Notes: a model not told the origin generated them from the letters alone. Numbered from the stretch's first letter, positions 13,882-41,360 are shown. The stretch: 64,000 bases of DNA from Candidatus Multivorans sp. (GCA_965247095.1 OZ251997.1:2595689-2659688), one strand, 5' to 3'. Program-made: numbers and translations.

Positions 13882-16736
13882 CAGCGAGCGCGGGCGGCGC
13901 AAAACCGCCCGCACGCCGGCGCTACCGACCGGCGATCGGCCCCAGGCTGAAACCGCTCCTGTGGGTGGTCTTCGGACTGTTCGCTCTGCTGGCGGTGAAC
14001 TCGTTCTACCTCTCCGGCGTTCGCGTTGCCGAGGCGGCAACCGGCGCGACCTACCAGAACTGGTTCTACATCTCGATGTTTCTGCTTCACTTGGCGGTGG
14101 GGGGATTGTTCGTGGCGCCGGTGATCTGGTTCGGTCTGGCGCACATGCGGAACGCGCGCAATCGACCCAACCGGCGCGCGGTGAAGGTGGGGTATGCGCT
14201 GTTCGGGACGGCGCTCGTGCTCCTTCTGAGCGGCATCGTGCTGACGCGGATCGAGGGTGTGATCACGGTGAACGACCCGGCGGTCCGCGGCGTGGCCTAC
14301 TGGCTGCACGTCCTGGCGCCCCTGGTAGCGGCCTGGCTGTTCGTGCTGCACCGGCTCGCCGGCAAGCGAATCAACTGGCGGATCGGTGCGCGCGTCGCGG
14401 CCGCCGCCGTGGTTCTGGTCGGCGTGGCGCTGGTGCTGCAGTTCCAGGATCCGCGGGCGTGGAACGTGGAAGGTCCGGAGTCGGGAGAGCAGTACTTCTT
14501 CCCGGCCCTGGCGCGCACCGCGAGCGGCGGGTTCATCCCCGAGCGGGTGTTGATGAACGACGCCTACTGCGTGGACTGCCATGCCGACATCCACGCTCGC
14601 TGGACCTACAGCGCCCACCGCTTCAGCTCCTTCAACAACCCCGCCTACAGTTTCTCCGTCCAGGAGACCCGCGACAAGGCGTACGAGCGTTCGGGCGACG
14701 TGCAGGCGTCCCGCTTCTGCGCCGGCTGCCACGATCCGGTGGTGTTCTTCTCGGGCGCCTTCGACGACCCGGAGTTCGACGTCGAGCAGCCGGCCGCGCA
14801 CGCCGGCATCACCTGCACGTCCTGCCACGCGATTACGCACATCAACAGTCCCCGCGGCAACGCCGACTACACGATCGAGGAGCCCCAGCACTACCCGTTT
14901 GCCTTCAGCGACTCAGGGTTCCTCAAGTTCGTCAACCATCAACTGGTCAAGGCGAAACCGGAACTGCACAAACGGACCTTCCTCAAGCCCCTGCACACGA
15001 CGGCGGAGTTCTGCGGCGCCTGCCACAAGGTCCACCTGCCCGAGGAGTTGAATCACTACAAGTTCCTGCGCGGCCAGAACCACTACGACTCGCACCTTCT
15101 CTCCGGCGTCTCGGGCCACGGCGTGGCGAGCTTCTACTACCCGCCCGAGGCCGAGCCGAACTGCAACGGCTGCCACATGGACCTGCTGCCGTCGGACGAC
15201 TTCGGTTCTCGCCGCCACCCGGAGAGCGACCAGCCTGATGTCACCCAGGTTCACGATCACCTGTTCCCGTCCGCGAACACCGGCATCCCCCATCTGCTCG
15301 ACTTCCCGGACTGGGTGATCGAGGCCCACCGCGAGTTCAACGAGGGCGCCGTCGACGTGGACATCTTCGGCGTCAAGCCGGGCGGCGCGATCGAGGACGA
15401 GCTGATCGCGCCGGTGCGCCCCGAGATACCGGCCCTCGAGGCGGGCGAGGACTATCTGCTGGAGGTCGTTGTACGCACCGTTGCCTTGGGGCATCACCTG
15501 ACCCAGGGCACCGTTGACTCCAACCAGCTCTGGCTGGACATCGCGGTGCGCGACGACAGCGGCCGGCTGGTGGGGCGGAGCGGCGGTTTGGGCGAGGGCA
15601 ACCGGGTCGACCCCTGGTCGCACTTCATCAACGTCTACATGCTCGACCGCGAGGGCGCGCGGATCGATCGCCGCAACGCCGAGGACATCTTCGTGCCGCT
15701 GTACGACCATCAGATCCCGCCGGGGGCGGGCGACGTGGTCCACTACCGGATGGAAGTACCGCCAGGGGCGGCCACCGGCAGCCTGACGGTCGAGGCCGCG
15801 CTCCGCTACCGCAAGTTCGACACGACGTACCTGCGCTACATCTACGGCGAGGACACGGTGAACGAACTGCCGATTCTCGACCTGGCCCGGGACACGGTGA
15901 CCTTCCCGGTGGCGGGCGCCTCCGCCCCTGGGCACGCGGGCGTCTCGCCCGCATCCGGTCCGGAGGTCCGCCAACCCGCCAAGCCTCTCTGGCAGCGCTG
16001 GAACGACTACGGCATCGGCCTGCTGCGCAAGGGCGGCACCGGTCGCGGCGAACTGCGGCAGGCGATCGAAGCCTTCACCCGGGTCGAGGAGTTGGGCCGT
16101 CCCGACGGACCGCTCAACCTCGCCCGCGTCTACCTGGCGCAGGGCACCGTCACCGACGACGCGATCGCGGCGCTCGAGCGGGCCGCCACCTTCGACCCGG
16201 CGGCGCCGGCGTGGTCGGTGGCCTGGTTCACCGGGCTGGTCAACTTCCAGAACGGCGCCGTCGACGAGGCGATCGCCAACTTCCGCTCGATCCTCGACGC
16301 CGACAGCGAGGAGATGCGACGCCGCGGCTTCGACTTCAGCCGCGACGTGCGGCTGCAGAACCAGCTCGGTCTGGCTCTGTTCGAGCGCGCCAAGCGCGAG
16401 CGGGGCCCTGCCCGCGCCGAGGCGCGCGCGGCGCGGCTCAACGAGGCGCGGGAGTCGTTCGAGAGCGCTCTGGTCATCGACCCGGAGAACGTGACCGCCC
16501 ACTACAACCTGGGTCTGATCTACGGCCAGCTTGGCGATCGCGAGGGCGCCGCCCGGCACCAGGAACTTCATGCGAAGTACAAGCCTGACGACAACGCCCG
16601 GGACCGGGCGATCGCCACGGCCAGACGCGCCGACGCGGCGGCCGATCACGCGGCGGAGGCGATCGTGATCTACGACCTGCACCGGCCCGAGCGCTTCGAA
16701 GGCGACCGGGCCGGGGTCGCCGGAGCGGGCGGTTGA
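13878..16736 (+). CDS. membrane-anchored multiheme cytochrome c (5 CxxCH) fused to C-terminal TPR repeats
   Basis: 952-aa ORF; N-terminal transmembrane helices; CVDCH, CAGCH, CTSCH, CGACH, CNGCH; C-terminal TPR-like repeats; contains one in-frame REP-like repeat copy. Confidence 0.8.
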   Translation: MTASAGGAKPPARRRYRPAIGPRLKPLLWVVFGLFALLAVNSFYLSGVRVAEAATGATYQNWFYISMFLLHLAVGGLFVAPVIWFGLAHMRNARNRPNRRAVKVGYALFGTALVLLLSGIVLTRIEGVITVNDPAVRGVAYWLHVLAPLVAAWLFVLHRLAGKRINWRIGARVAAAAVVLVGVALVLQFQDPRAWNVEGPESGEQYFFPALARTASGGFIPERVLMNDAYCVDCHADIHARWTYSAHRFSSFNNPAYSFSVQETRDKAYERSGDVQASRFCAGCHDPVVFFSGAFDDPEFDVEQPAAHAGITCTSCHAITHINSPRGNADYTIEEPQHYPFAFSDSGFLKFVNHQLVKAKPELHKRTFLKPLHTTAEFCGACHKVHLPEELNHYKFLRGQNHYDSHLLSGVSGHGVASFYYPPEAEPNCNGCHMDLLPSDDFGSRRHPESDQPDVTQVHDHLFPSANTGIPHLLDFPDWVIEAHREFNEGAVDVDIFGVKPGGAIEDELIAPVRPEIPALEAGEDYLLEVVVRTVALGHHLTQGTVDSNQLWLDIAVRDDSGRLVGRSGGLGEGNRVDPWSHFINVYMLDREGARIDRRNAEDIFVPLYDHQIPPGAGDVVHYRMEVPPGAATGSLTVEAALRYRKFDTTYLRYIYGEDTVNELPILDLARDTVTFPVAGASAPGHAGVSPASGPEVRQPAKPLWQRWNDYGIGLLRKGGTGRGELRQAIEAFTRVEELGRPDGPLNLARVYLAQGTVTDDAIAALERAATFDPAAPAWSVAWFTGLVNFQNGAVDEAIANFRSILDADSEEMRRRGFDFSRDVRLQNQLGLALFERAKRERGPARAEARAARLNEARESFESALVIDPENVTAHYNLGLIYGQLGDREGAARHQELHAKYKPDDNARDRAIATARRADAAADHAAEAIVIYDLHRPERFEGDRAGVAGAGG
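15927..15958 (+). repeat. REP/MITE-like hairpin repeat copy inside the cytochrome CDS (in frame)
   Basis: CCTGGGCACGCGGGCGTCTCGCCCGCATCCGG, encoding …[13 protein letters not shown]…; same core GCGGGCGTCTCGCCCGC as the intergenic copies. Confidence 0.7.
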
Positions 16737-18598
16737 CTCCCGACCGGCCGGACGAAGAACTCGTAGCCGAGGACGACGCGGTCATCGGCCGCGTATTCGC
16801 TCGTTCCCTCAAGGTACTGGCGGCGCTGGCCGTTGCCGCGCTTCTCGTGTTCGCGCTCCGTGTCGTCTTCCGGGCGGCGCCCGAGGAGGCGAGGGAGATC
16901 CCGGTCGAGGCGCCGCGGGCCGTGGCGGCGGCGCCGGAGGTTCCGGTCATCTCCTTCACGGACGTCACGGCGGAGGCCGGCATCGACTTCGTCCATGTCA
17001 ACGGCGCCGAGGGCGATGCCCTGTTGCCGGAGACGATGGGTTCGGGCGCGGCCTTCTTCGACTTCGACCGCGACAGCGACCAGGACCTGCTGCTGGTCAA
17101 CTCGACCGGGTGGAAGGCGGCGCCGGAGACCGGCCCGACGATGGCGCTGTACGAGAACGACGGCGCCGGGCGGTTTGCCGACCGGACCGCCGCACTCGGT
17201 CTGGCGACGAGCTTCTACGGCACCGGCGTTGCGGTCGGCGACGTGGACAGCGACGGCTGGGTCGATCTGTTCATCTCCGCGGTGGGGCCGAACCGCCTGT
17301 TCCGGAACGTGGAAGGAGCTCGCTTCGAGGACGTGACCGTGAGGGCGGGCGTGGCCGGCGCCGCCTCGGAGTGGAGCAGCAGCAGCGCCTTCTTCGACGC
17401 GGACGGAGACGGCGACCTCGACCTCCTGGTCGGCAACTACGTGCGCTGGTCGCGCGAGATCGACATCGAGGTCGGCTACCAGTTGACCGGAGTTGGGCGC
17501 GCCTACGGGCAGCCGGTCAACTACGGCGGCACGACCATGGACCTCTACCGGAACGACGGCTCGGGCGTCTTCGTCGATGTCTCGGAGGATGCCGGATTGC
17601 ACATCCTGAACCCGGCCTCGGATGCGCCGGTGGCGAAGACGCTGGGGCTGGCGCCGGTCGACATCGAGGGCGACGGCGATGTCGACGTGCTGGTCGCGAA
17701 CGACACGGTGCGGAACTTCCTGCTCGTGAACGACGGCAGCGGCGTCTTCACCGAGGAGGGAGGGAACTACGGCCTGGCCTACAGCCGCGACGGCGCGGCG
17801 ACCGGCGCGATGGGCGCCGATGCCGCCGATTTCCGCAACGACGGCGAACTCGGCTTCGCGATCGCGAACTTCGCCAACGAGATGACCTCGCTCTACGTCT
17901 CCCAGGGCGATCCGACGCTGTTCAGCGACGAGGCGATCACCGCCGGCATCGGCGCGCCGAGCCGCCGCGTGCTCAGCTTCGGCCTCTTCTTCTTCGACTA
18001 CGACCTGGACGGCCGGTTGGACCTGCTCCAGGTCAACGGCCATCTCGAGGACGACATTGAGGTCGTGGAACCCAGCCAGCGCTACCGGCAGCCGCCGCAG
18101 TTGTTCTGGAACGCCGGCTCAGGAGCGGCGTCGACCTTCGTGCCGGTCACGCCGGCGCCCGGCGACGGTCTGACCCGCGAGCTGGTCGGCCGGGGCTCGA
18201 CCTACGCCGACATCGACGGCGACGGCGACCTGGACATCCTGCTGCTCCAGACCGGCGACCGGCCGCTGCTGCTGCGCAACGACCAGAAGACCGGCCACCG
18301 CTGGCTGCGGTTCCGTTTGCGCGGCGACGGCGAGCGCGTCAACCGCGACGCGATCGGTTCCTGGGTTGAGGTCGAAGAGCGGACCACGGCTGGGCCTGTG
18401 GTGCAGCGGCGCCGCGTCATGCCGACCCGCAGCTACCAGAGCCAGGTCGAGCCGGTGGTGACGATCGGCCTGGGCGCCGCGTCGTCGGTCGACGACCTGG
18501 TGCGGATCGACGTGGTCTGGCCCGACGGTACCCGGCAGGCAGTCGAAGTCAACGGCCTCGACCGGGTCGTCGAGGTCGAGTACGGGTCTCCGAACTAG
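16733..18598 (+). CDS. CRTAC1 family protein (FG-GAP/VCBS repeats plus ASPIC/UnbV C-terminal domain)
   Basis: 621-aa ORF; repeated D-x-D-G-D calcium-binding motifs, …RNDQKTGHRWLRFRLRG… UnbV_ASPIC region; start overlaps the cytochrome stop. Confidence 0.8.
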   Translation: MTPDRPDEELVAEDDAVIGRVFARSLKVLAALAVAALLVFALRVVFRAAPEEAREIPVEAPRAVAAAPEVPVISFTDVTAEAGIDFVHVNGAEGDALLPETMGSGAAFFDFDRDSDQDLLLVNSTGWKAAPETGPTMALYENDGAGRFADRTAALGLATSFYGTGVAVGDVDSDGWVDLFISAVGPNRLFRNVEGARFEDVTVRAGVAGAASEWSSSSAFFDADGDGDLDLLVGNYVRWSREIDIEVGYQLTGVGRAYGQPVNYGGTTMDLYRNDGSGVFVDVSEDAGLHILNPASDAPVAKTLGLAPVDIEGDGDVDVLVANDTVRNFLLVNDGSGVFTEEGGNYGLAYSRDGAATGAMGADAADFRNDGELGFAIANFANEMTSLYVSQGDPTLFSDEAITAGIGAPSRRVLSFGLFFFDYDLDGRLDLLQVNGHLEDDIEVVEPSQRYRQPPQLFWNAGSGAASTFVPVTPAPGDGLTRELVGRGSTYADIDGDGDLDILLLQTGDRPLLLRNDQKTGHRWLRFRLRGDGERVNRDAIGSWVEVEERTTAGPVVQRRRVMPTRSYQSQVEPVVTIGLGAASSVDDLVRIDVVWPDGTRQAVEVNGLDRVVEVEYGSPN

Positions 18599-18619
18599 CT
18601 GCTAGCCATAGCCAGGGCA

Positions 18620-19069
18620 CCGGGAACCCGGGTCATCGACCTTGCCGGCGCCTACGTGCTGCCGGGTCTGTGGAACAACCACTCCCATCTCGGCGACCTG
18701 CTGCCGGACCCGAAGGGCCTGCTGCCCAACGAACCGCTGCTTCGGGCCTCGATTCGCGCCGGCCGCAACGCGATGCACGCGCTCAAGGCCGGGATTCTCG
18801 AGATCGAGCAGCTCGCCTTCCACGGAATTCCGGCCATGGGCGCCATCCAGGCCGCGACCCGAAACAGCGCCGAGATGATGGGAATGCTGGACGATCTGGG
18901 CACGGTCGAGGTCGGCAAGCTGGCCGATCTGATCGTGCTCGAGAAGAACCCGCTCGAGCACATCTCGCACATGCGCAGCCTGTCCATGGTGATCAAGGAC
19001 GGCAAGATCGTGAATCGCTCGAGAGACGAGGGGCAGGCCAGCTTCTGGGAGCTCTACCTGCAGGAGTGA
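18620..19069 (+). pseudogene. amidohydrolase-family remnant with large internal deletion
   Basis: Reading frame gives …VIDLAGAYVLPGLWNNHSHLGD (HxH metal motif) joined after ~100 aa directly to a typical amidohydrolase C-terminus (…GKLADLIVLEKNPL…VIKDGKIV); about 250 aa of TIM barrel are missing and the N-terminal ~60 aa are absent. Confidence 0.5.
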
Positions 19070-19102
19070 GGAGCGGCGCGGTGAACCTACCGCCCGGACG
19101 AC

Positions 19103-29462: not shown

Positions 29463-32410
29463 CAGGACAGGGTCACGTCGAGCTGGAGCGTTTCGCCTGG
29501 TGCGAGGTCGATCCGCTGCAGGAGTTGGCGGACTCCCTGGGACTCCCGGACGAACGTCGCGAGGTCCGCTTCGGAGGCATCGGAGGCAAGGGATACGTCG
29601 AGCCGGCCATCGACGCTCCAGGAGCGCTCCGACGCCGGCACGATCTCCTCACCCTCGGCCAGCAACAGATAGAGCGGACGGGGGTCCGAGCCGGCGGAGA
29701 GCTGGAAGCGGCGGATCAGATTCGTGCCGCCGCCGCTGTGCAGTGGCGTCGGCGCCTCCTCGATCAGGAGGTCGTGCAGGCGGTAGCGCAGCACCGGTCT
29801 GCCCTCGTCGTCGAGCCGGTAGCCGAGGAAACGGCCGCCCACGTTCCGGTCGGCCCGGCCCGCCGTGGGCCAGGGGCTGTCGATGTCGCCCAGGTCCGCA
29901 AAGGCCGGACCCGGCGGAAGATCCAGCACATCCGTGCCGTAGGGGCCGAAGAACCGGCCCGCGCGGCCCTGCCACGTGCCCTTGGCGTCGAAGAAACCGC
30001 CTCGCCAGATCTTCGCCAGGCGGACGTTGTTCGCGTCGAAGGCGACGTGGACGTTCTCCGGGTAGCCGATGGCGATCGACCGCGGTCCGACATCGATCAT
30101 GAAGGTGCGGAACACGATCGGGCGCTCGTCCGGGACGAGAACCAGCTCGGCGCCGATGTTCGTGCCCTCGGGCGCGGGCATGGAAGTGCCGAGCGAGAGG
30201 GCGTTCCAGATCGCATCGATCTGGCCGTCCATCGAACCGCCGCCGAGATGCTGGAAGTTGACGACGCCTTCGGGCCAGAACGAGGGCATGCGGGTTCCCG
30301 GGCGGATCGCGGCCGGATCCCGCAGGAACCGCGCGACCCATCCGGGCCGCAACCGGTCGTAGACGGTGGCGAGGTCGATGGTCGAGACGCCTTGGGCGGG
30401 ATGGACGTGAACGTTGTGGCACGTGATGCAGCTCATGGACTTCTCGCCCAGCAGTTCAATCCCGTCGCGGGCGGCTTCAGTCGAGAAAACCGGTTCGTCG
30501 AGGTCGCCTGCCGCTGCGTCGACTGCTTCGAGCGCGGCGGCCAATCGTTCGGCCGCGGCCGCGGGGAAGCTCGGCATCCTGACCTCCATGAAGTCGCGGC
30601 GGACGTGCAGGTCGTCGCCGGTCAGGATCGAGCGCAACGCGCCCGGCTTCAGCTTTCCGCCGGCGCCGTGGAGCGGAGGCGGCAGCCGCCCCTCGTCGCC
30701 GAGGTCCTGGCCGCCGACGACGGCGAAGTACGTCGCGCGCACCGGATCCGGGCCGCCGACTTCCGCGTCACCGGCGCGTCGCTGGTGGCAGGCGTAGCAG
30801 TTGTAGCTCGCCATCGTGTGGACGATCTGGTCGCCGGGCTGCCGCGACTCCGCGAGATGGGAAAGCACCCCGAGTGCGGCCCGGATCGCGCGCCTCTGAT
30901 GACTGGCGAGCGGATAGCGCGGCGAGGAGTCGCCCGTGTGCATGCCGGGTCCGTTGACCACGGCGGCCGGATCCAGCTCGGCGAGAGGCGGCGGAGCGGC
31001 GACGTCCCGCCGGTCGGGCTGGATTCCCGAGTAGCCGTGGCACGAGGCGCAGCCGTGGCGAACGAAGAGTCGCGCGCCCCAGCCCGCGTCCTCCGCGTCC
31101 CGCGAAACCAGGGTTCCCCCGTCCGGCCGCAGCCGCACGTTCTCGTAGCTGGTGTAGTCGTCGAGAACAGCGCCCCGGGGGAGGGAAGCGCCCTCGAGGT
31201 TGACGCGGAGAAAGGGCTCTCCCGTGTCGCCGCGAATGAAGTAGGTCACTTCCACCGGGTGATCTCCGGCCTCTAGCTGGAGTCGGATGTCCGCCTCCCG
31301 GGCGCTGCCGGCGGTCTTGGTGGCGACCACCTCGCCGTCAACGGCGAGCGAGGAACCCGAGCGGCGGTCCGAGGCCAGGGTGAACGTGTAAGGGCCTGTC
31401 GCCGGCGCCCGCATCACGCCGGCAAACCGGTACGCGTGGTTGCCGTAGTTCATCTCGACCGGGAGGCGTAGCGACAGGCCGCGGATCCGACCCTCGGCGG
31501 CAGGTTCCATCGCGTCGAGGTCGGCAGGCGGCCGGTCGAAGAAGCCTCTTACGTCCTCGTCCTGCATGGGATCGAGGAAGTACTCGAACTCGAAGCCTTG
31601 CCGCCGCTCGACCACCTGCGGTTCCTGTTCCCGCAGCAGGTAGATCGCCAGATCCTCCGCTTCCGCCGGGGTCAGGTACAGGGACGGCATGCGCCCGCCT
31701 GGCCTTGTCGACCGTGGGTCCAGGAGGAACTTCGAGAGCGCCGCGACCGAGGTCTTGCCGGCAAGATCCGGCAGAGGGACGGAGGGAATGGCCGGTTCGG
31801 CGCCGGCAGCCTCCGGCGCGTGGCAGGCGACGCAGCCGATCGAGTGGAACAGCCTGCGCCCCCGCTCCACCGCGGCCCGGAAGCGGAACACCGGGAACTC
31901 ATCCGCCACACCGCCGCTCGCATCGTCGGCCGGGTGTGGGGCCCCGTCCGGCTCGGGCGGCTCTTCCTCGTAGAACAGGTAGCGCGCGATGGAACGCGCG
32001 ACGCGGTTCCCATCCTCGGGGTCGAGAGAGTGCAGGACCTCAGGCATCGTCGAGCCCGGCTTGTGTTCGTCCGGGTCGGCCAGGTAGGCGGTGAGCCACT
32101 CGACGGTGACCCGCTCGTTGAGCTCCGCGAGGTCGGGGGCCGTACGTGTGGGTATCCGTTTCGACACGTCGGGCGTCGGTTCATGGCAGGACAGGCAGTT
32201 CAGTTCGCCGAGCAGCACTTCGCCGAGGGCCGCCTCGCTGGCCGCGCCGGCCAGCCGCAGGTGCTCGTAGCCCGGCACGACCGGCGTCGGCGCGGCCGGA
32301 ACCGCCGCCTGGGCCTGAATCGCCGCGCTCAGCGCCGCGGCCAGGACCGGGAAGACGAGCCGGCCGGACCGGCTCGGACGCGGTGCGCGGCGGCCGATCA
32401 CATCGGCCAC
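29459..32410 (-). CDS. PVC-type heme-binding CxxCH protein (multi-cytochrome-c domain, membrane-bound dehydrogenase family)
   Basis: 983-aa ORF with signal peptide; CLSCH, CVACH, CASCH, CYACH, CITCH motifs spread along the length. Confidence 0.8.
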   Translation of the reverse strand: MADVIGRRAPRPSRSGRLVFPVLAAALSAAIQAQAAVPAAPTPVVPGYEHLRLAGAASEAALGEVLLGELNCLSCHEPTPDVSKRIPTRTAPDLAELNERVTVEWLTAYLADPDEHKPGSTMPEVLHSLDPEDGNRVARSIARYLFYEEEPPEPDGAPHPADDASGGVADEFPVFRFRAAVERGRRLFHSIGCVACHAPEAAGAEPAIPSVPLPDLAGKTSVAALSKFLLDPRSTRPGGRMPSLYLTPAEAEDLAIYLLREQEPQVVERRQGFEFEYFLDPMQDEDVRGFFDRPPADLDAMEPAAEGRIRGLSLRLPVEMNYGNHAYRFAGVMRAPATGPYTFTLASDRRSGSSLAVDGEVVATKTAGSAREADIRLQLEAGDHPVEVTYFIRGDTGEPFLRVNLEGASLPRGAVLDDYTSYENVRLRPDGGTLVSRDAEDAGWGARLFVRHGCASCHGYSGIQPDRRDVAAPPPLAELDPAAVVNGPGMHTGDSSPRYPLASHQRRAIRAALGVLSHLAESRQPGDQIVHTMASYNCYACHQRRAGDAEVGGPDPVRATYFAVVGGQDLGDEGRLPPPLHGAGGKLKPGALRSILTGDDLHVRRDFMEVRMPSFPAAAAERLAAALEAVDAAAGDLDEPVFSTEAARDGIELLGEKSMSCITCHNVHVHPAQGVSTIDLATVYDRLRPGWVARFLRDPAAIRPGTRMPSFWPEGVVNFQHLGGGSMDGQIDAIWNALSLGTSMPAPEGTNIGAELVLVPDERPIVFRTFMIDVGPRSIAIGYPENVHVAFDANNVRLAKIWRGGFFDAKGTWQGRAGRFFGPYGTDVLDLPPGPAFADLGDIDSPWPTAGRADRNVGGRFLGYRLDDEGRPVLRYRLHDLLIEEAPTPLHSGGGTNLIRRFQLSAGSDPRPLYLLLAEGEEIVPASERSWSVDGRLDVSLASDASEADLATFVRESQGVRQLLQRIDLAPGETLQLDVTLSW

Positions 32411-32901
32411 TCGAGGCGTTCGGGGGGGACAACGGACGGCTCGTCCGGTCCGGGGAAGGCAGCCGGCACGCCGATCGTCACCTCGCCGGTGGCCGCGTAC
32501 TCCGTGCCGCGGGCGAGCGCGGTCTGGAAACCTGTGCAGTCCAGGGAGGCGCCGGCCGGGCCGCGCAGTGAGGCGTAGAGCTCGTCAGCCGCGTGCATCC
32601 AGGTGGTCGGCAGGCCGGCCAGGATGGGGTGGTCGGGCCGATCGTGGATGACCTGGAACTCCCGGATACGGCCGTGCCGGCCGCTCAACCCCTCGTCGGG
32701 CGAGGTGCTGACGTCTACCGTGAAGCGCCTGGTCCGCTCGAGCGTCGCCCTGACGGCGGCGGTGGTGCGCGCCCAGTCGTGGTTGTTCACGCCGCCGATG
32801 ATCAGGACCGGAATCCTCGCGTCCGCTCCGGCTGATTCGACTCGCGGCGCCGTGCAGCCGCACACCAGAACCAGGATCGCGATGGAGCGAGAAACGAGCA
32901 T
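32398..32901 (-). CDS. ThuA-like (class I glutamine-amidotransferase-like) lipoprotein, short form
   Basis: MLVSRSIAILVLVCGCTAP lipobox; VLIIGGVNNHDWARTT…DHPILAGLP…DELY motifs of ThuA; shorter than typical ThuA. Confidence 0.55.
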   Translation of the reverse strand: MLVSRSIAILVLVCGCTAPRVESAGADARIPVLIIGGVNNHDWARTTAAVRATLERTRRFTVDVSTSPDEGLSGRHGRIREFQVIHDRPDHPILAGLPTTWMHAADELYASLRGPAGASLDCTGFQTALARGTEYAATGEVTIGVPAAFPGPDEPSVVPPERLEWPM

Positions 32902-32939: not shown

Positions 32940-32985
32940 CCCTGGGAACGCGGGCGTCTCGCCCGCATCCGGCGCGGAGCGCCCG
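32940..32985 (+). repeat. REP/MITE-like hairpin repeat copy (intergenic)
   Basis: CCTGGGAACGCGGGCGTCTCGCCCGCATCCGGCGCGGAGCGCCC; 7-bp stem GCGGGCG/CGCCCGC with 3-nt loop. Confidence 0.75.
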
Positions 32986-33016
32986 TCTGGTTGCCGCCGG
33001 CAACTAGGATCGGACG

Positions 33017-34389
33017 GTGAGCGTCGCGAAAGCAGGCTCGGTTGCTCTTGTCCTCGCGATGCTCCTCGCTTGCGCGTCCGACCTGGGCGAGACTTCCGCG
33101 CCGCCGGCCGGGATCCCCCACCCCGAACTCGCGGAACTCGAACCGCCCCTAGCCCGAGAACTCGAAGCCCGCCGGGCCGGACTCGACGCGCTGCTCGCCG
33201 ACGAAGCCGCGACCGCCAAGGAGCAGGCCCAGGCCTTCGGCGAGCTGGGCCGGCTCTACCAGGCCGAGGAGTCCCTGGCGCGCAGCGGGACGACCAGGGT
33301 CGCGATGGCCGACCCGCTGATGCACGAATTGACGACCCTGGCGATCGGCGCCTCGCCGCACCTGGCGCGGGGCAATGCCGCCGCGCGGGAGGGCCGGCTG
33401 GCGGAAGCGGAGTCCGCCTACCGGCAGGCTGTGGCAGCCGACGCCGCGAATCCGCGCGCCCATCAGAGCCTGGGTACCGTCCTGGTTCGCCGTGGCAATC
33501 CGCAGGCGGCCCTGGAGCACTTCGGCGCCGCCGTCGCGCTGGAGCCGGAGAATGCCCGCGCGCACTCGGACCTCGGCGTCCTGCTGGGAGAGCTCGGGCA
33601 GAACGACCGCGCCCTGGAACACCTGGGCCGCGCGGTCGAACTCGAGCCTGGGCTGGTGCAGGCACTGCTGAGTCTCGGCAACGTCCAGGCGCGTATCGGT
33701 CGCCTGGACGAATCGGAAGCGACCTACCGCCGGGTGCTCGAGAGCGACACCGGCAACGGAGATGCCCGGCTCGGACTGGGGGCCGTCCTGGCGCAGACCG
33801 GCGACTTCGAGCAGGCCGTCGTCGAGTTGCAGGAAGCGCTACGGCACGAGCCGGGCGACGAGCGGGCCTCCCGCATCCACTTCGGCCTCGCCGAAGCCCT
33901 GGTGCGCACCGGCCAGCTTGAGGAAGCCCTGGCGCACTACACCCGCGTCCGCGAAATCGATCCCGACCAGGGCCTCGCCTGGCTGCGCGAGGCGACGGTG
34001 CTGATGGGCCTCGAACGTTTCGCCGACGCCAAGGGCGTGCTCGAAGCGCGGCTGGCAGTTGCGCCCGCCGACGACCGCGCCGCTCACTCCCTGGCGAGAC
34101 TGCTCGCCGGCGCACCCGACCCGTCGCTCCGCGACGGTCCGCGGGCCCTGGCCATCGCGGGCGTCTGCTCGAAGCAGACAACGCCGCGCCCGAGGCCGAG
34201 ACCGCCGCGATGGCCCTGGCTGAAGCCGGCCGCTTCGAGGAGGCGATCGACATCCAGCGCACCCTGGTCCAGGACGCGCGGCGGCTGGAGCGAGCGGGCG
34301 AGGAGCGGCGTCTGGCCCGGAACCTGGACCGGTACGAGCGCGGCGAGGCGTGCTGTGCGCGGGTGGGGGATGTACTTCCGCCGTATTGA
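33017..34389 (+). CDS. TPR-repeat lipoprotein, with apparent frameshift near 34160
   Basis: Signal/lipobox MSVAKAGSVALVLAMLLACASD; many TPR units; after …RALAIAG the sense frame switches (+2) to …LLEADNAAPEAETAAMALAEAGRFEEAIDIQRTLVQDARRLERAG…PPY*, while the original frame degenerates to P/R/W-rich text. Confidence 0.6.
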
Positions 34390-34419
34390 GCGGACTGGCG
34401 GTCTACCATTGAGGAGATC

Positions 34420-34707
34420 ATGGCGATGCAGAACCCACCACATCCGGGCGGGATCGTCCGAAGGCAGTGCCTGGAGCCCCTGGGGCTGTCCGTGACGCGA
34501 GCCGCAGAAGGCCTGGGCGTCACCCGGCAGGCGCTCTCCGACCTGGTGAACGGTCATGCCGGAGTGTCGACGGAGATGGCGGTTCGCCTGTCGAAGGCGT
34601 TCGGCTCGAGTCCTGAGACTTGGCTCGGGAGGCAGATGGCCTACGATCTTTGGCAGGTCCGCGACCGTGCCGAGCAGATCACGGTCGAGCGCTTTGACGC
34701 GGCCTGA
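34420..34707 (+). CDS. higA: HigA-type antitoxin (XRE-family HTH), solitary
   Basis: MAMQNPPHPGGIVRRQCLEPLGLSVTRAAEGLGVTRQALSDLVNGHAGVSTEMAVRLSKAFGSSPETWL, strongly HigA-like; no upstream higB possible (TPR gene ends 30 nt upstream). Confidence 0.7.
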   Translation: MAMQNPPHPGGIVRRQCLEPLGLSVTRAAEGLGVTRQALSDLVNGHAGVSTEMAVRLSKAFGSSPETWLGRQMAYDLWQVRDRAEQITVERFDAA

Positions 34708-34769
34708 GTGCCGGCGATGCAAGTAAGTTCCAACTAGCAGCTAGGGGCTTGCGCGGCAGGACGATCTGA

Positions 34770-34812
34770 CCTGGGAACGCGGGCATCCTGCCCGCATCCG
34801 GCGCGAAGCGCC
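34770..34812 (+). repeat. REP/MITE-like hairpin repeat copy with compensatory stem change
   Basis: CCTGGGAACGCGGGCATCCTGCCCGCATCCGGCGCGAAGCGCC; the last stem pair is changed G-C to A-T on both arms, so the hairpin is preserved. Confidence 0.75.
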
Positions 34813-34835
34813 GGCCTCTGGGAGTTCTGCCGCGC

Positions 34836-35246
34836 CTAGGCCGATCTGAGGCCGGTATCGACGAACTCTCGTGGGGAGACGACGCGAACGTTCTGCCTGG
34901 CGCTGGCTGGGAAGTGTCTGGCGTTTCCGGTGACCAGATAGTCGGCCAGGGCGGCTGCCGCCACTTCCAGGAAGGGCTCGTCGTGGGGATCGGGAAGCCT
35001 GGCCGGCAAGGGCATTGGAGAGGTCAGTTCGCCACGGGCTTCGACTTGTAGCAGTAGCGCGCTGATGTCCTCTTCAGCGAGAGAGAATCTGGGTCGGCGC
35101 AGTACCTCGGCGTACTCGGCGAGGATTCGCGCGTCGTAGCAGAGGCTGAGGCTGCCTGCAGCGGTCAGCCCGACGATGGTGCCCGGTGGCCCGAAGGGCG
35201 ATAGCAAACCGGAGACGAGGACGTTCGTGTCGACGACGATTCTCAT
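34836..35246 (-). CDS. vapC: PIN-domain toxin (VapC-like)
   Basis: MRIVVDTNVLVSGLL…; 4-nt overlap with the upstream antitoxin gene. Confidence 0.8.
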   Translation of the reverse strand: MRIVVDTNVLVSGLLSPFGPPGTIVGLTAAGSLSLCYDARILAEYAEVLRRPRFSLAEEDISALLLQVEARGELTSPMPLPARLPDPHDEPFLEVAAAALADYLVTGNARHFPASARQNVRVVSPREFVDTGLRSA

Positions 35247-35590: not shown

Positions 35591-36643
35591 TCAAGACCGT
35601 GGACCCAGGGTTTCCCCCTCGCCCTGAACCAGCGTCTGATACTCGCCAGGGCGCACATCCGTCCAACGCTCCACCGCGCCGTCGGGCCAGCGGACTTCGA
35701 CGTGGCTGACGCCGGCGTTCTCGCCATCGCCGAGGCCGACGAGCACTCTGGGGTCGCGGGCTGACGCGTTGCTGCCGTCGGTGTGGACGTGGCGCCAGAT
35801 GGGCGGTGCGTCGGCGCGGTGGACCAGGACGTGAGCGCCCAAGGCGTCGCGGTTGTGGGCGACGAGCCGGAGGCCCAGCCACGGGCGGCCTTGGCCGACC
35901 TGGTTCAGCAACAGACGGGTCGGCGCGTTGCTGTTGACGACGACGACATCGAGGTCGCCGTCGTTGTCGACATCGCCGAACGCGGCGGCGCGGCTGACTT
36001 CGGCCGACTCGAAGACGACGCCAGCCTCGGCCGTGACCTCGCGGAAGGCGCCGTCGCCACCATTGCGGAGGAGCTGGTTCGCCTGCCGCAGCGGGTACGG
36101 ATCGCCGGCGCGGATCAGCGCGTCGATGCCGATCACGGCGCCGTTGACGGCGAGCACGTCGAGCCAACTGTCGTTGTCGTAGTCGATCCAGCCGATGCCG
36201 AAGGTGGTGAAGGGGAGGCTGGGGGGCCCGAGTTGCGACGCCGCCGACTCGTCGCGGAACAGGCCGGCGCCGTCGTTGTCGAAGTCGAGCAGGGCCGCGC
36301 CGTAGTAGAGGGTCAGGGCGCTGCCGACGAAGGCCGTCGAGTACGGGATCGCCATGGACATGCGCGTCGCCGGCGCCAGCATGTCGTGCACCTCGATGGT
36401 GAAGCGCAGCGCCTGGTAGGCGAAGACGGCAAGGAAGGCGGCCGAGCTGAGCGCGACCACGGCGCCGATCCAGCGCTGCACCTTGGGCGGAGTCCTGTCG
36501 ACCAGGAACCGGAGCGCGAAGTGGGTGCCGGTCTTCATCGCGTAGGCGGCCGAGAGAGCCGCCAGCCACATGAGGAGAAACCGGGCCAGCTCTTCCGACC
36601 AGGACAGCCTGGTCCGCCACCCGCTCGAGGTGGCGGTGTGCAC
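35591..36643 (-). pseudogene. chimeric ORF: TRAP small-permease (DctQ-like) fragment fused to the C-terminal ASPIC/UnbV part of a CRTAC1-like protein
   Basis: N-terminal ~120 aa resemble the transmembrane half of DctQ (…GTHFALRFLVDRTPPKVQRWIGAVVALSSAAFLAVFAYQALRF…); the remainder (FGDVDNDGDLDVVVVNSNAPTRLLLNQVGQGRPWLGLRLV…VEVRWPDGAVERW) is a CRTAC1 C-terminus paralogous to 16733..18598. Confidence 0.45.
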
Positions 36644-36666
36644 GTTGCTGGTCGCCCGTCAATGCA

Positions 36667-37731
36667 CTAGTGCCCGCCCCAGATGTCGCCCACCACGAAG
36701 CCGTTGGGGAACGGGTCCTCCGGGTCGAGGACGTACTGGGCGAAGCCGGTAATCCACGCGGTGCCCGCCAGGGTCGGCACCGCGGCGGCGTAGTCGCCGA
36801 CCTGCGTCTCCCGAATCATGCGGCCCGTGAACGTCGTGCCCAGAATCCCCTCGTGGACGAAGTCCTGGCCGAGCGGCAGCTCGCCCTTGGCCCACATCGC
36901 CGCCATCTTGGCGCAGGTGCCGGTGCCGCAAGGTGAGCGGTCAAGCGCCCCGGTCCAGGTCAGCGGCTTGTTCCAGTCGAGCGTGCCGGTCGACACGATG
37001 ACCGTGTTGCGCCGGTCGGCGCCTGATGTCAGCGGCGGCGCGGAGAGCTGGCCGATCGTGACGCCGCGGATCTGCGGGTTCAGCGGGTGGACGGGCGCGG
37101 GAAGCTGCTCCTGGCAGGCGGCCTTGATCATCTCGCCGACCCGGGCGGCGTCGGCGGCTTCCTCGGGCGCCAGGGTGAGGCCGACCTGATCCGCGTCGGC
37201 GATGACGTAGAACATGCCGCCGTAGGCGACGTCGACCGTGACCTTGCCGAGTTCCGGCACGTCGAGTTCGGCGTCGAGATGGACGGCGAAGGCCGGCACG
37301 TTCTTGAACTCGACCCGCTTCACCTTGCCCCGCTCGACCTCGGCGCGCACTTGGATCAGGCCGGCGGGCGACTCCAGGGTGAGTTCGGTGAGCGGCTCCG
37401 TCGACGCCACCATCCCGGTCTCGATCAGCACGGTAGCGACGGCGATCGTGTTCGTGCCCGACATGCCGGGGTACTCGACCTGCTCCATGATCACGTAGCC
37501 GGCGACCGCATCGGGATGGGTGGCCGGGAGGATCAGGTTGCAGTTCGCCGCCGGATAGCCGCGCGGCTCGCGCAGCATGCGCAGCCGGAGTTCGTCGGCC
37601 TCGGTTTCGAGGTAGCGCATCTTCTCGAACATCGTCGATCCGGGGACGTCGAGGACGCCGCCGACGATCACCCGTCCCGGCTCGCCGCAGACGTGGGTGT
37701 CGACGGCGTGGATGACGTTGGAGACGCGCAT
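36667..37731 (-). CDS. proline racemase / 4-hydroxyproline epimerase / hydroxyproline dehydratase family protein
   Basis: MRVSNVIHAVDTHVCGEPGRVIVGG…SGTNTIAVATVL…DRSPCGTGTCAKMA… family hallmarks; 354 aa, appears intact. Confidence 0.8.
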   Translation of the reverse strand: MRVSNVIHAVDTHVCGEPGRVIVGGVLDVPGSTMFEKMRYLETEADELRLRMLREPRGYPAANCNLILPATHPDAVAGYVIMEQVEYPGMSGTNTIAVATVLIETGMVASTEPLTELTLESPAGLIQVRAEVERGKVKRVEFKNVPAFAVHLDAELDVPELGKVTVDVAYGGMFYVIADADQVGLTLAPEEAADAARVGEMIKAACQEQLPAPVHPLNPQIRGVTIGQLSAPPLTSGADRRNTVIVSTGTLDWNKPLTWTGALDRSPCGTGTCAKMAAMWAKGELPLGQDFVHEGILGTTFTGRMIRETQVGDYAAAVPTLAGTAWITGFAQYVLDPEDPFPNGFVVGDIWGGH

Positions 37732-37736
37732 CGGAT

Positions 37737-38936
37737 CTAACTCCCGGCTGGTGGAAGAACCGTCATCTTCATCCAGTCCGCCGTGTTGTGAAAGTCCGCC
37801 CGGGAGTTCTCCGGATAGTCGGACTCGCTCAGGTAGCGGCCGGCGAGCACGCCCATCGCCATCGGCGCCCAGGTAATCACGCCCACGCCGAGGCGCTGGC
37901 ACATCGGGATCAGCTCGTTCTCGATCCGGCGGTCGAGCAGGTTGTAGGGCGGTTGCTCGCTGACGAAGCGGGCGTAGCCCTTCAGTTCGCTCGTCATCAC
38001 GGCTTCGGCGACCATCCAGGCCGGGTGGGTCGAGCAGCCGATGTAGCGGATCTTGCCGGTCCGCACCAGGTCGTCCAGAGCTCTCAGGATCTCGTCGAAC
38101 GGGATCTCGGGCGACGGGCGGTGCAGTTGATAGAGGTCGATGTAGTCGGTCTGCAACCTTCGGAGCGACGCCTCGCAGGCGCGGATCAGGTTGAGGCGCG
38201 AGTGGCCGTACTCGTTGGGACCGATGCTGGCGGTGTAGTCCGTAACGCTCTCGCCGACGACTCGCCGCCCGAACGTGGTGTTGAAGAACTCGAGGTCGTC
38301 CTGGATGAACTGGAAGCCCTGCAGTCCCGTTTCGAGAAAGGCCATGTGGTCCGTGCAGCAGGTGTTGCCGGGCACGATCCAGGACATCCCCACATCGTGG
38401 AAGGGCGCCATCCAGGCCTCGAAGATCGGTCGCGCCCTGTCGTTGCCCTGCAGGTAGATGCCTCGGAAGCGGCCGTACCAGTCGACGTTGAAGTACACGG
38501 ACAGGTTCGCGTGCGCGGCCGGCTTCTCGGGCGACTCGGGATCGCCGAAGTGCTCGCGCACGTAGACCCGGGAGCCGAGCAGCCCGCTCTCTTCCGCGCC
38601 CCAGAGCGCTGCTCGGATCGTGCGCCGGGGCTTGAGGTCGAGGGCCCGCAGGAGCCGCATCGCCTCCATCACGATCGCACTGCCCGCCGCGTTGTCGGTG
38701 GCAGCCGTCGTAGGAGGGGAGTTCGCGTACCGGGGACCGTAGACGTCGGTCAGGACGCGGGCGAACTCCATCACCTGGGAGCGCCGAAAGCCCTCGTCGC
38801 GCAGGTCGGCTACGACGGTCTCGGCGCCAGCGGTCGGCTTGCCGTCGCCGTGTTCCTCGGCGCGAGACTCGTTCCCGCCGAGCAGCGCAACGAGCGCGAG
38901 GAGTGCCGGCATCCGGGTGACACCGCGTGCGATCAT
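37737..38936 (-). pseudogene. chimeric ORF: M28 peptidase (signal peptide, internally deleted) fused in frame to a duplicated 3' fragment of the aldo/keto reductase gene
   Basis: [21 protein letters not shown] signal; M28 pieces (…[18 protein letters not shown]…[11 protein letters not shown]…TDHMAF…) with the HxD region missing; the C-terminal ~200 aa (…[49 protein letters not shown]…) are ~80% identical at nt level to 24004..~24600. Confidence 0.5.
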
Positions 38937-38960
38937 CAGCAGCCTGGCACTATACAGCCG

Positions 38961-39007
38961 TCCCGGGCACACGGATGGCACGCGGGCGTCTCGCCCGCAT
39001 CCGGCGG
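38961..39007 (+). repeat. REP/MITE-like hairpin repeat copy (between two gene fragments)
   Basis: …GGCACGCGGGCGTCTCGCCCGCATCCGGCGGCG. Confidence 0.7.
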
Positions 39008-39008
39008 C

Positions 39009-39500
39009 GACTACACTGCCGCAGTGTCGGCCATCGATTTCGTCCAGCGGATGATCTCGGCCGATTCGGGCCGCTCGGCCAAGCGCGGCTGCTATCTGGC
39101 CGCGGGGCTGACGCTGGTGGTCGGGCTCGCCGTCTCCCTGATCGGGCTGTCGGCGTTCTACTTCGGCCGGGACCCGGGTTCCTCGCTGCTGATCGACCTC
39201 GCCTTGAGCGATCTGCCGGGCCTGGTGGGCGGCGGGATCCTGCTCGGTCTGTTCTGGCGCAAGGCGAACACTCCGGGGGCACTGGCCGGTGTGATTGCCG
39301 GTAGCGTCGCCCGAATGACTCTCCACTTCGCGGTGGCCGATGCGTACCGCGGCCTCGACACCCTGCTGGCGCCGGTCTTCAGCCTGGCCGCCATGGTGAC
39401 CGTGTCGCTGCTGACCCAGGCCGCGTATCGACCGCGGCACGACGAGTTGAAGCGCGTGCCGTCCGAGCGCGATCTTGTGGCTGGCCTGGACGGCGCCTAG
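39009..39500 (+). pseudogene. C-terminal fragment of a sodium:solute symporter (SSS) family transporter
   Basis: …[77 protein letters not shown]… matches only the last ~160 aa of SSS transporters; no upstream body. Confidence 0.5.
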
Positions 39501-39534
39501 GAGTCCGCGAGGCGGAGCGATGGGCCACTCTGGA

Positions 39535-39570
39535 CCTGGGAACGCGGGCGTCTCGCCCGCATCCGGCGCT
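39535..39570 (+). repeat. REP/MITE-like hairpin repeat copy abutting the IS630 left end
   Basis: CCTGGGAACGCGGGCGTCTCGCCCGCATCCGGCGC, followed immediately by the IS630 inverted repeat. Confidence 0.75.
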
Positions 39571-40710
39571 AGTGTAGTGTCTCCGATATGGGTTGACAGT
39601 TTCGGGCAAGTTCGTCAGTATGCCGTTCATGTGGGAACCAGCGGAACGACTTCACATCGAAGAGAGGGATCGAGCGCTTCTCAAGAAATGGGTAGAGGCG
39701 CCGACGACGACGCAACGCACGGTCCGGCGTAGCCGGATCGTGCTCGCTGCGGCGGAGGGCACGGCCAATCGGGCGATTGCGGCGAAACTCGGCGTTTCGC
39801 GGCCCACGGTGCTGCTGTGGCGTCGTCGGTTCGCGGAGGACGGACCTTCGGGGCTGACCAGGGATCGTCCCCGCGGTTGCGGAAAGCCGCCGCTCTCGGA
39901 GTCGGTCGTGCGTAAAGTGATCGAAGCGACGCTGCACGAGAAGCCGCCCGGTCAGACCCACTGGAGCGTGCGTTCGATGGCTCGGGCCCAGGGCATCAGT
40001 CCGGCGGCGGTCCAGCGCATCTGGGTGGCGCACGGGCTGAAGCCCCATCTGGTCAAGACGTTCAAGCTGAGCAACGACCCCAGGTTCGTGGAAAAGCTGC
40101 GGGACGTTGTGGGCCTGTACCGGAATCCGCCCGAGAACGCGCTTGTGCTGTGCGTGGACGAGAAGAGCCAGATCCAGGCTCTGGACCGGACCCAGCCGGG
40201 CTTGCCGCTCAAGCGCGGCCGCGCGGGAACGATGACCCACGACTACAAGCGCAACGGGACGACGACGTTGTTCGCTGCGCTGAACGTGTTGGAGGGCACG
40301 GTGATCGCGGAGTGCATGGGCCGGCAGCGCCACCAGGAGTTTCTCCGTTTCCTCAAGCGTCTCGACCGTGAGATCCCGAAGCATCTCGACCTGCACCTGA
40401 TCCTGGACAACTACCAGACCCACAAACACGACGCCGTGCGCGCATGGCTGGAGCGAAAGCCTCGCTTCCACTTCCATTTCATTCCCACTTCGTCGCCCTG
40501 GCTCAACCTGGTCGAACGCTGGCTGGGCGGTCTGACCACGAAGGCGATCCGGCGCGGTGCATTCCAGAGCGTCAACGACCTCGTAAAGACCATCTACGAC
40601 TACGTGGAGCACAGCAACGAAAACTCCCGGCCGTTCGTCTGGACGGCCACCGCCGACAGCATCATCGCAAAGGTTACACGTGGTAAAGCCATGTTGGAGA
40701 CAGTACACTA
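39571..40710 (+). mobile_element. IS630-family insertion sequence
   Basis: Terminal inverted repeats TAGTGTAGTGTCTCC (39571-) and GGAGACAGTACACTA (-40710); single transposase ORF. Confidence 0.8.
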
Positions 40711-40711
40711 G
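39593..40711 (+). CDS. IS630-family transposase (DDE)
   Basis: N-terminal HTH (…[21 protein letters not shown]…), DDE region (…[12 protein letters not shown]…[15 protein letters not shown]…[13 protein letters not shown]…). Confidence 0.85.
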
Positions 40712-41036
40712 CAGCAGCCTCGACGAACAGGTTCGGCGCCTGGAGCGCCTGCTCCGACGCGAGCTCGAGGCGGAGGGCCTCAAGGTGGAGGAAGCTGTCG
40801 AGAAGGGCGAACGGGTGCTGGTCATCGGCGAAATGAGGATCTTCCCCCGGCGTCTTCTCGAAGGCCAACTCACGGCAGCCGATACAAGCGACTCGAGCAC
40901 CGTCGACCTCGATTGGCTCGCCGCCGCCCACCGCAGTTACTTCCGCAACCTGCGCCGGTTCCATCCGAGTCTGGTCGTTCGGTAGCAGCGTGCGCGGCAG
41001 GAAGAATCGGCGTACCCCATGTTCTGCGGCGCACGC

Positions 41037-41360
41037 TTGCATGGAACAAACCCCTCGTCCTGGCCGGCCCTTCGTGCCTAATGCGGGCGAGACGCCCGCG
41101 TTCCCCAGGGCGGACCGAAGTAGCGACCACGCTCTTACGGTGTTCCCTGCGCGACAGCGCAGCGATACCGCTGTGGGTACTTGCATGGAACAAACCCCTC
41201 GTCCTGGCCGGCCCTTCGTGCCTAATGCGGGCGAGACGCCCGCGTTCCCCAGGGCGGACCGAAGTAGCGACCACGCTCTTACGGTGTTCCCTGCGCGACA
41301 GCGCAGCGATACCGCTGTGGGTACTTGCATGGAACAAGCCCTGTTCCCTGTGCGTCAGCG
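41037..41360 (+). repeat. tandem direct repeat, 144-bp unit x ~2.2; each unit embeds a reverse-oriented REP-like hairpin
   Basis: Unit begins TTGCATGGAACAAACCCCTCGTCCTGGCCGGCCCTTCGTGCCTAATGCGGGCGAGACGCCCGCGTTCCCCAGGGCGG… at 41037, 41181 and partially at 41325; no spacers, so not CRISPR. Confidence 0.8.

Follow-up and report, generated by a model that had tools for sequence, protein, structure and literature searches.

Short GC-rich hairpins recur in a 64,000-nt stretch of DNA from Candidatus Multivorans sp. (GCA_965247095.1 OZ251997.1:2595689-2659688), here called the window at its full length, and one copy lies in frame inside a multiheme cytochrome gene. This raises the question of what kind of element the hairpin is: a dispersed mobile repeat, a signal kept by the host, the remnant of a larger transposon, or a site of recombination. 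We find that it is a dispersed family resembling repetitive extragenic palindromes (REPs) and MITEs (miniature transposable elements with inverted repeats), not a local duplication. The copies are probably small non-autonomous REP-type palindromic elements whose bare unit is copied in trans, and this is the reading that we favor.

The repeat unit comprises approximately 33 nt, over which conservation extends, and consists of a head, (C)CCTGGGAAC, a hairpin, GCGGGC-R-TCY-Y-GCCCGC, and a tail, ATCCGG. A pattern search of the window located the exact 17-mer core GCGGGCGTCTCGCCCGC at 15936, 32950, 38982, and 39544 on the plus strand and at 41083 and 41227 on the minus strand, and the core variant GCGGGCATCCTGCCCGC at 34779 on the plus strand. 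Allowing up to three mismatches gave 18 matches in the window against 4.2 expected, a number attained in none of 100 shuffles. A profile hidden Markov model (HMM), made from 126 copies that all stem from other genomes and none from the window, returned exactly seven copies with E-values from 1.6e-11 to 1.1e-8, the next match having an E-value of 2.7 (Table 1). An earlier note on this DNA had counted at least eight copies; the profile HMM reduces these to seven, two of which go back to one insertion event. Both minus-strand copies lie inside 144-bp tandem units, as the note had described, and because this unit matches nothing among the fetched loci beyond the hairpin core, copies 6 and 7 represent a single insertion followed by local duplication. 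The tandem unit as a larger dispersed element was ruled out for the same reason. Six exact cores and the 34779 variant were recovered at or near the positions given before, but the copy placed at 38961 actually occupies 38975-39005 and lacks CCTGGGAAC. The 7-bp stem with a 3-nt loop was borne out in the predicted fold of all seven copies, whereas the second palindrome, GGCGC...GCGCC, is intact at only two of them (32971-32983 and 34799-34815).

Table 1. Hairpin copies and associated repeat elements in the window.
Feature	Position	Strand	Description
Copy 1	15926-15959	+	CCCTGGGCAC-GCGGGCGTCTCGCCCGC-ATCCGG; in frame, linker of multiheme cytochrome-TPR gene 13878-16736
Copy 2	32940-32983	+	Consensus unit and second hairpin GGCGC-GGA-GCGCC
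Copy 3	Core 34769-34802	+	Centre of ~97-nt MITE 34742-34838; allele GCGGGC-A-TCC-T-GCCCGC, then CCGGCGC-GAA-GCGCCGG
MITE, ~97 nt	34742-34838	+	Inverted ends TAGGGGCTTGCGCGGCAGGAC, GTTCTGCCGCGCCTA; TA at both ends; between convergent HTH_3 and PIN genes
Copy 4	38975-39005	+	Remnant of a longer three-hairpin form; CCTGGGAAC head replaced by GGATGGCAC (..CACGGATGGCAC)
Copy 5	Core 39534-39567; hairpin 39544-39560	+	Within ~70-nt insertion 39503-39571
IS630-family insertion sequence	39572-40708 (with TAs 39570-40710)	+	DDE_3 transposase 39593-40711
Short MITE	40983-41041	not assigned	Same inverted-end family as MITE 34742-34838, no hairpin core; ends TAGCAGCGTGCGCGGCAG...GTTCTGCGGCGCACGCTTGCA
144-bp tandem repeat	41036-41341	-	2.1 units; absent from related loci L109 and L110
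Copy 6	41077-41108	-	Tail ATTAGG; one per full 144-bp tandem unit
Copy 7	41221-41252	-	Tail ATTAGG; one per full 144-bp tandem unit

The dispersal of the repeat was assessed in species-representative genomes with the pattern ACGCGGGCRTCYYGCCCGCAT, which occurs at at least 105 loci, so that the motif is not confined to this region and the dispersed family proposed in the earlier note is upheld. Seven Candidatus Multivorans assemblies (Acidobacteriota, Thermoanaerobaculia) account for 60 of the 105 listed loci, and the copies listed for them lie at scattered coordinates along chromosomes of 4.4-5.4 Mb. The other 45 listed loci come from about 36 genomes, and head and hairpin together occur in at least eight phyla. 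Carriers among these matches include Gamma-, Beta-, and Alphaproteobacteria, other Acidobacteriota, Planctomycetota, Chloroflexota (Anaerolineales), Binatia, Armatimonadia, Bacteroidota (Prevotella and Symbiothrix), and an Oscillospiraceae metagenome-assembled genome (MAG). Mis-binning does not explain the matches in other phyla, because several of these carriers are closed chromosomes or have AT-rich flanks. The 7 bases upstream of the search pattern mostly read CCTGGGA, CCCGGGA, or GCTGGGA in these matches, and since they lay outside the pattern, the units in other phyla are homologous and not chance palindromes. An inverted partner hairpin within 110 nt, as in REP doublets (REPINs), accompanies 14 of the 48 units listed from other phyla and none of the 82 listed copies from Multivorans and the window; such doublets occur on the gammaproteobacterial chromosome OZ251545.1. 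Rfam reported no family at the copies at either gathering or permissive (E ≤ 5) thresholds, a blastn search of plasmids gave only weak chance matches in IS3 genes, and a full-text literature search with the repeat sequence found no relevant paper. The spacing of the copies is irregular, unlike that of CRISPR repeats, and a phage-borne repeat was rejected on the basis of a single match in viral contigs. As a separate observation, in an Anaerolineales MAG and in Candidatus Versatilivorator the hairpin occurs in regular tandem arrays (L065 5431-5600; L089 3570-3781; L079 960-1790; L numbers denote fetched loci) with periods of ~81-88 nt and ~160-180 nt, in which several different hairpins alternate; these arrays resemble clusters of bacterial interspersed mosaic elements (BIMEs), unlike the Multivorans singlets.

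The stem of the hairpin is under structural constraint. Among the matches listed, 90 copies have G-C, 35 have A-T, and 4 have a mismatch at its innermost pair, which the search pattern had not fixed (Fisher p = 7e-27). In a pairing test on 66 distinct copies ascertained by head, loop, and tail only, 98.5% of the cells pair, which none of 500 shuffles equaled, and covariation is confined to the innermost pair (51 G-C and 13 A-U); these covariation statistics imply more independent events than there were, the copies being phylogenetically non-independent. Across phyla, the outer six pairs hardly vary among the listed matches (GCGGGC/GCCCGC), with a few fully compensated alternative stems elsewhere (GCCGGC, GCGGCC, GCGACC, and GCAGGC). 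The earlier note had singled out the window copy at 34770 as carrying a compensatory mutation and had concluded that the structure, and not the sequence, is maintained. Compared to the majority form, both members of the innermost pair are indeed changed from G-C to A-T in this copy (core at 34779), but the change is not private to it, the A-T form being a common subfamily allele shared by 35 of the 129 listed copies. The broader conclusion does not hold, as the outer 6 bp are kept in sequence too. Sequence and structure are thus both conserved, which points to sequence-specific recognition or to recent common descent.

The copy in the cytochrome gene illustrates change in place better. The intact 952-aa protein encoded by this gene contains five CxxCH motifs and, C-terminally, a TPR domain, and copy 1 (15927-15959) adds 11 residues to it in frame (aa 684-694) without interrupting it, as had been claimed. 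The protein is 95-98% identical to Ca. Multivorans proteins (95% for ortholog P0010). In an alignment of 64 orthologs, the stretch from VTFPV to RQPAKPLWQRWNDYG is highly variable in length and rich in Ala, Gly, Ser, and Pro; a presence/absence comparison, as proposed in the note, found the unit, whole or in a partly deleted or duplicated form, in all orthologs of at least 93% identity, and no trace of it in orthologs of at most 92% identity, among them the closely related P0017-P0026 (~90-92% identical). In an AlphaFold model based on a 56-sequence alignment, pLDDT falls below 50 over aa 682-699, a segment flanked by a confident beta strand (667-679) and by the first TPR helix (704-719). At the orthologous DNA site, two tandem units with a 33-nt period are found in L108, a 5'-truncated unit in L050, and none in L106. 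The innermost pair reads G-TCT-C in the window, A-TCT-C (an A.C mismatch) in L112, and A-TCT-T in L107. The copy in the cytochrome gene therefore truly is an insertion, made in frame into a linker that is disordered and hypervariable, and it shows cleanly how a REP unit can become fixed within a protein linker, with the stem states G-C, A.C, and A-T at one site.

Insertions of this kind are not limited to the cytochrome gene. Close relatives differ by gains, losses, and tandem duplications of units and by their nesting in other small repeats. In stretches of 21-23 kb of syntenic DNA, we counted no copy in L106, L109, and L110, one in L107, three in L112, and eight in L108. Copies of L108 that are missing from L107 lie in a PGI-like gene, in the N-terminal region of an FG-GAP/UnbV gene, and in two spacers; the FG-GAP/UnbV gene of L108 is 45 nt longer than that of L107 and 66 nt longer than that of the window. 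In L012, a gene contains a 60-nt insert made up of the unit and a second small hairpin, and the corresponding site in L038 is empty. Copy 5 together with ~70 nt around it is absent from L109 and L110. Overall, in-frame insertions in unrelated genes (cytochrome-TPR, PGI-like, FG-GAP/UnbV, and others) account for length differences of 33, 45, 54, 60, and 66 nt. With gene calls in the loci being approximations based on GC content at third codon positions (GC3), 14 (strict gene call) to 27 (loose) of 86 copies in Multivorans loci lie inside open reading frames (ORFs), i.e., ~16-30%, and 59-72 of the 86 outside, so that the copies are mostly extragenic. Within ORFs, five of the six frames of the unit are used, the 11-residue frame of the cytochrome copy being the commonest. 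Because none of its six frames contains a stop codon, the unit can persist both 3' of genes and as an in-frame insert in disordered linkers. For annotation, this means that such units explain hypervariable Ala/Gly/Ser/Pro linkers as well as many small spurious ORFs in these genomes.

As for the mechanism, the bare unit would be copied in trans by an enzyme that recognizes the folded hairpin and the conserved head on single-stranded DNA, the likeliest candidate being an HUH/Y1 transposase of the REP-associated tyrosine transposase (RAYT) or IS200/IS605 type, and a MITE-borne subfamily would be moved by an IS5/IS1182-like DDE transposase. It is known that RAYT and IS200/IS605 Y1 transposases read a folded hairpin with a conserved single-stranded head (PMC3479197). 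Such recognition would explain the conservation of head, loop, and outer stem as well as the exclusively compensatory changes at the innermost pair.

Several observations weigh against copying of the bare unit in trans, and the enzyme step in particular is weak. A tblastn search for RAYT genes in the window and the 105 listed loci was empty with an approximate E. coli YafM sequence as the query, and a scan for the HUH...Y..NP motif in the six-frame ORFs of the window and the ~1 Mb of loci returned nothing, leaving ~1 Mb without a Y1 gene. No gene family recurs beside the copies in a clustering of flanking ORFs from the listed loci, and the genes between inverted copy pairs are ordinary by Pfam. 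The canonical GTAG or CGTC tag is absent: the head reads CCTGGGAAC or YNGGGAAC and the tail AT(CCGG), and the only CGTC in the unit lies in stem and loop. At the few pairs of filled and empty sites, that of L012 and L038 among them, neither a target duplication nor a target motif is visible, and the orientation of copies relative to local GC skew is unbiased (45 vs. 41), giving no sign of lagging-strand targeting. Since the copies are non-independent, a few master sequences could account for some of the covariation. Furthermore, the Multivorans copies are singlets (0/82 with an inverted partner), a form that the REPIN model treats as immobile remnants. A 26-nt core in at least eight phyla fits poorly with REPIN-RAYT systems, for which lineage specificity and mostly vertical inheritance have been described.

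Such a breadth of distribution is uncommon among REPs and may point to horizontal spread or to one recognizing protein shared by the carriers. It is conceivable, though we would not expect it, that the 26-nt head and hairpin (YNGGGAAC-GCGGGC-RTCYY-GCCCGC-AT) constitutes one horizontally spreading REP lineage, bound or mobilized by a widely distributed protein and not by a lineage-restricted RAYT, which proliferates as singlets and has repeatedly been taken up as linkers, with compensatory change preserving its structure in coding sequence. With similar reserve, this lineage would span Acidobacteriota, Alpha-, Beta-, and Gammaproteobacteria, Planctomycetota, Chloroflexota, Binatia, Armatimonadota, Bacteroidota, and Bacillota.

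The main rival to copying in trans is a host role, in which the hairpin would serve as a bidirectional terminator without a U tract, as a stabilizer of mRNA 3' ends, or as the binding site of a conserved host protein, selection keeping the copies and their spread being secondary. Intergenic copies lie at a median of ~50 nt from the 3' end of the upstream gene and are enriched where neighboring genes converge (18 of the 48 intergenic copies that were classified vs. 48 of 221 baseline spacers), and head, loop, and outer stem hardly vary across the phyla mentioned above. Roles in mRNA stability and in the binding of proteins have been reported for REPs (PMC3733652, PMC3479197). In addition, the window copy in the spacer between the M28 peptidase and SSF genes matches the consensus perfectly, and the orthologous copy in L109 has decayed. 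A host role nevertheless fits poorly with the variation among close relatives (zero to eight copies per ~22 kb), with the share of copies inside ORFs, with an orientation unbiased relative to transcription (10 sense and 12 antisense copies), and with the lack of an Rfam match. An intrinsic terminator was rejected, as a T run follows none of the copies and none was called terminator-like. We therefore regard a host function as an unlikely primary explanation.

Less probable still, and in our view doubtful, is that all copies are cores or decayed remnants of a ~100-nt MITE moved only by an IS5/IS1182-like DDE transposase, the bare 33-nt unit being immobile. One hairpin subfamily does ride at the center of a ~100-nt MITE with IS5/IS1182-like ends. 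In the window, this is the element around copy 3, whose fold is markedly more stable than that of shuffled sequences (z = -4.2). Canonical relatives with the ends TAGGAGCTTGCGCGGCAGAAC / GTTCTGCCGCGCAAGCTCCTA have an empty site in L107, and all four canonical copies have TA at both ends, although this TA could belong to the inverted end itself. The ends TAGGAGCKTGCGCSGCAGAAC (~21 bp) are common to the MITEs and to full-length insertion sequences in the soil metagenome contigs L170 (563-2120) and L178 (minus strand, ~1.5 kb), which encode transposases of 430-440 aa with DDE_Tnp_1/DUF772/DDE_Tnp_1_6 domains, i.e., of the IS5/IS1182 type, and which themselves carry no hairpin. A metagenome scan for MITE ends yielded mostly chance coding matches, of which only TA-flanked ones were used; those listed include 51-nt mini-MITEs and 92-nt MITEs with a homologous head and, at the center, a hairpin with a different stem. 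As these occur in unrelated contigs, the association of hairpin and MITE is old. Against a MITE origin of every copy, inverted ends are detectable at only ~5 of the 84 listed copies (~6%), all of the ATCCT allele, and conservation of the majority form ends ~10 nt outside the hairpin. The inserts at filled and empty sites (33-60 nt) are too short to include inverted ends, and short MITEs of the same family occur without a hairpin. The mobile MITE suggested in the earlier note is therefore real for 34742-34838, with its inverted repeats and flanking TA, but not for the other six window copies, which lack inverted ends; as to the target duplications sought there, the canonical MITEs have TA at both ends, which need not be a duplication, and none is visible at bare-unit insertions. 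An IS630-type MITE was rejected, since the MITE ends bear no relation to the inverted ends of the IS630 (GTGTAGTGTCTCC...) and the MITE parents are IS5/IS1182-like. Beyond Multivorans, the transposon family and its MITEs appear to be widespread. The genes converging on the MITE, HTH_3 (34420-34707, +) and PIN_3 (34836-35246, -), may form toxin-antitoxin modules, as may a second PIN gene at 46721-47242.

Copy 4 derives from a different composite. It is the remnant of a ~105-nt three-hairpin form, in which CCTGGGAAC is followed by a 67-nt two-hairpin segment and then by GCGGGC... (fold z = -7.7). It sits in the native spacer between the M28 peptidase and SSF genes, and the orthologous site holds a degenerate copy in L109 (GCGGGCGAATCGGCCGC) and none in L110. 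The left flank of the long form was rejected as a coding start, its translations diverging after ~25 residues. Copy 2 occupies a 115-bp divergent spacer between a ThuA-like ORF (32398-32901, -) and a TPR gene (33017-34495, +).

We consider it highly improbable that the hairpins are hotspots of recombination or insertion that made the gene-fragment junctions of this region and attracted the IS630 element. Six of the seven copies do lie within an 8.3-kb stretch with degraded genes, and the earlier note had placed copies exactly at the junctions between gene fragments. The related loci L109 and L110 contain an intact block upstream of a solute-binding gene (DctP, DctM, DctQ, SDR, proline racemase, aldo-keto reductase, M28 peptidase, SSF symporter, and a small ORF), of which the window keeps only pieces after ~7 internal deletions between 36.3 and 39.5 kb. 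Mapped against these loci, the junctions fall at ~36300, 36607-36671, 37799, 38261-38272, 38704-38707, 39029-39036, and 39238-39247. Because only the junction at 39029-39036 in the SSF gene adjoins a hairpin, 30 nt from copy 4, the other six being distant from any, hairpins are no marker of fragment junctions, and copy 4 itself lies in a native spacer shared with L109. The placement at junctions thus does not stand, and the link between hairpins and gene fragments in the window is coincidental. As to the IS630 element, its left TA duplication (39570-71; right, 40709-10) is 10 nt 3' of the copy 5 hairpin, so that the position noted earlier is correct. Its target is GCTAGC, CTAG being the usual target preference of IS630 elements, and we read this single case as that preference and not as evidence of targeting. 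The element interrupts a conserved small ORF. When it is removed in silico, an ORF of ~100 aa is restored whose 19-residue N-terminus reads copy 5 in the frame of the cytochrome copy; the 39503-39571 insertion thus supplies an in-frame N-terminus to this small ORF.

Finally, chance GC-rich palindromes in a 68% GC genome can be dismissed: short segments fold only modestly better than shuffles (z -0.7 to -1.9), as any GC-rich sequence folds well, but the excess of core matches over shuffles, profile E-values of at most 1e-8, and a 7-nt head conserved in other genomes outside the search pattern refute this explanation.

REPs, BIMEs, RAYTs, and intragenic REPs are well established (PMC3479197, PMC3733652, PMC3116915), multi-phylum REP superfamilies, REPs in flexible linkers, and transposase-less and untagged REP-like families are known (PMC3733652), and in-frame insertions of the Rickettsia palindromic element (RPE) type have been reviewed (PMC10969869). 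Among these systems, the hairpin belongs to an untagged REP-like family of an already described kind, and what is unusual is its near-identical ~26-nt core in at least eight phyla. It shares with the REP/BIME/REPIN-RAYT systems of E. coli and Pseudomonas an imperfect palindrome of 20-40 nt in many dispersed copies, mostly outside genes and close to their 3' ends, an unpaired head that is conserved at the hairpin foot, clusters and mosaics with other small hairpins, a copy number that differs by lineage, and, in other phyla, inverted doublets like those of REPINs (14 of 48 among the matches listed). It differs from them in its head (CCTGGGAAC and not GTAG), in the singlet state of the Multivorans units, in that no RAYT was found in the window or the ~1 Mb of loci, and in a core shared across phyla. 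Further parallels are the GTAG and CGTC REP superfamilies, the intragenic REPs of Opitutus terrae, and RPEs (PMC3733652, PMC10969869), which are likewise stem-loop repeats found in several phyla; intragenic REPs and RPEs are also repeatedly inserted in frame into unrelated genes and tolerated in flexible linkers or termini, and CGTC repeats have no dedicated transposase, just as none was found here in the window or the ~1 Mb of loci. Unlike GTAG and CGTC REPs, our unit has no tag at the stem foot and is extremely GC-rich with its 7-bp stem and 3-nt loop, and unlike classical RPEs, it measures 33 nt instead of ~100-150 nt and is unrelated in sequence. GCGGGC and GCCCGC are absent from the main text of Di Nocera 2013 (PMC3733652), and the present repeat is a different sequence family. 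The element at 34742-34838 and its relatives resemble IS5/IS1182-derived MITEs in their ~21-bp ends, TA at both ends, length of 50-105 nt, and empty site in a relative; this resemblance applies to only ~6% of the hairpin copies, and in them the hairpin is central cargo and not part of the inverted ends. The present family extends REP-like selfish hairpins to the Thermoanaerobaculia (Acidobacteriota).

Some further features of the window were recorded. The region at 36301-39502, in which the SDR gene is lost and deletions of 269, 442, 780, 713, and 246 bp affect the aldo-keto reductase, M28 peptidase, and SSF symporter genes, is either a decaying region or a faulty assembly; it includes a 51-bp inverted piece at 36605-36655. 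The long ‘chimeric’ ORFs at 35591-36643 and 37737-39440 are fused pseudogene pieces. The first begins with a C-terminal FG-GAP/UnbV_ASPIC fragment (35591-36300), a paralog of the gene at 16733-18598, which is fused to a DctQ fragment at ~36300; DctP and DctM, which precede DctQ in relatives, are missing from the window. A further small repeat at 41324-41400 (..CCCTGTGCGTCAGCGCGGCGCGGACGCCGCGACTCGACTCCTA) is unrelated to the hairpin and matches L088 (98%) and L106 (95%); in L088, a small repeat of this type directly abuts a hairpin unit. The ThuA-like ORF beside copy 2 overlaps a stop-to-stop frame of a cytochrome c/PA14/DUF6797 gene (29459-32410, -) over 32398-32584, and both are probably one gene split by a frameshift. 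The 3' half of the tRNA-Met at 50398-50474 (-) recurs in partial copies at 47535-47579 and 50260-50304, which lie within direct repeats (~140-150 nt, 93% identity) and within a tandem repeat of 2.2 units of 138 bp. Together, these repeats in 47430-50474 bracket ~2.7 kb with an ORF (47598-48929) that has weak HTH matches only, and this region looks like the scar of a tRNA-integrated element.

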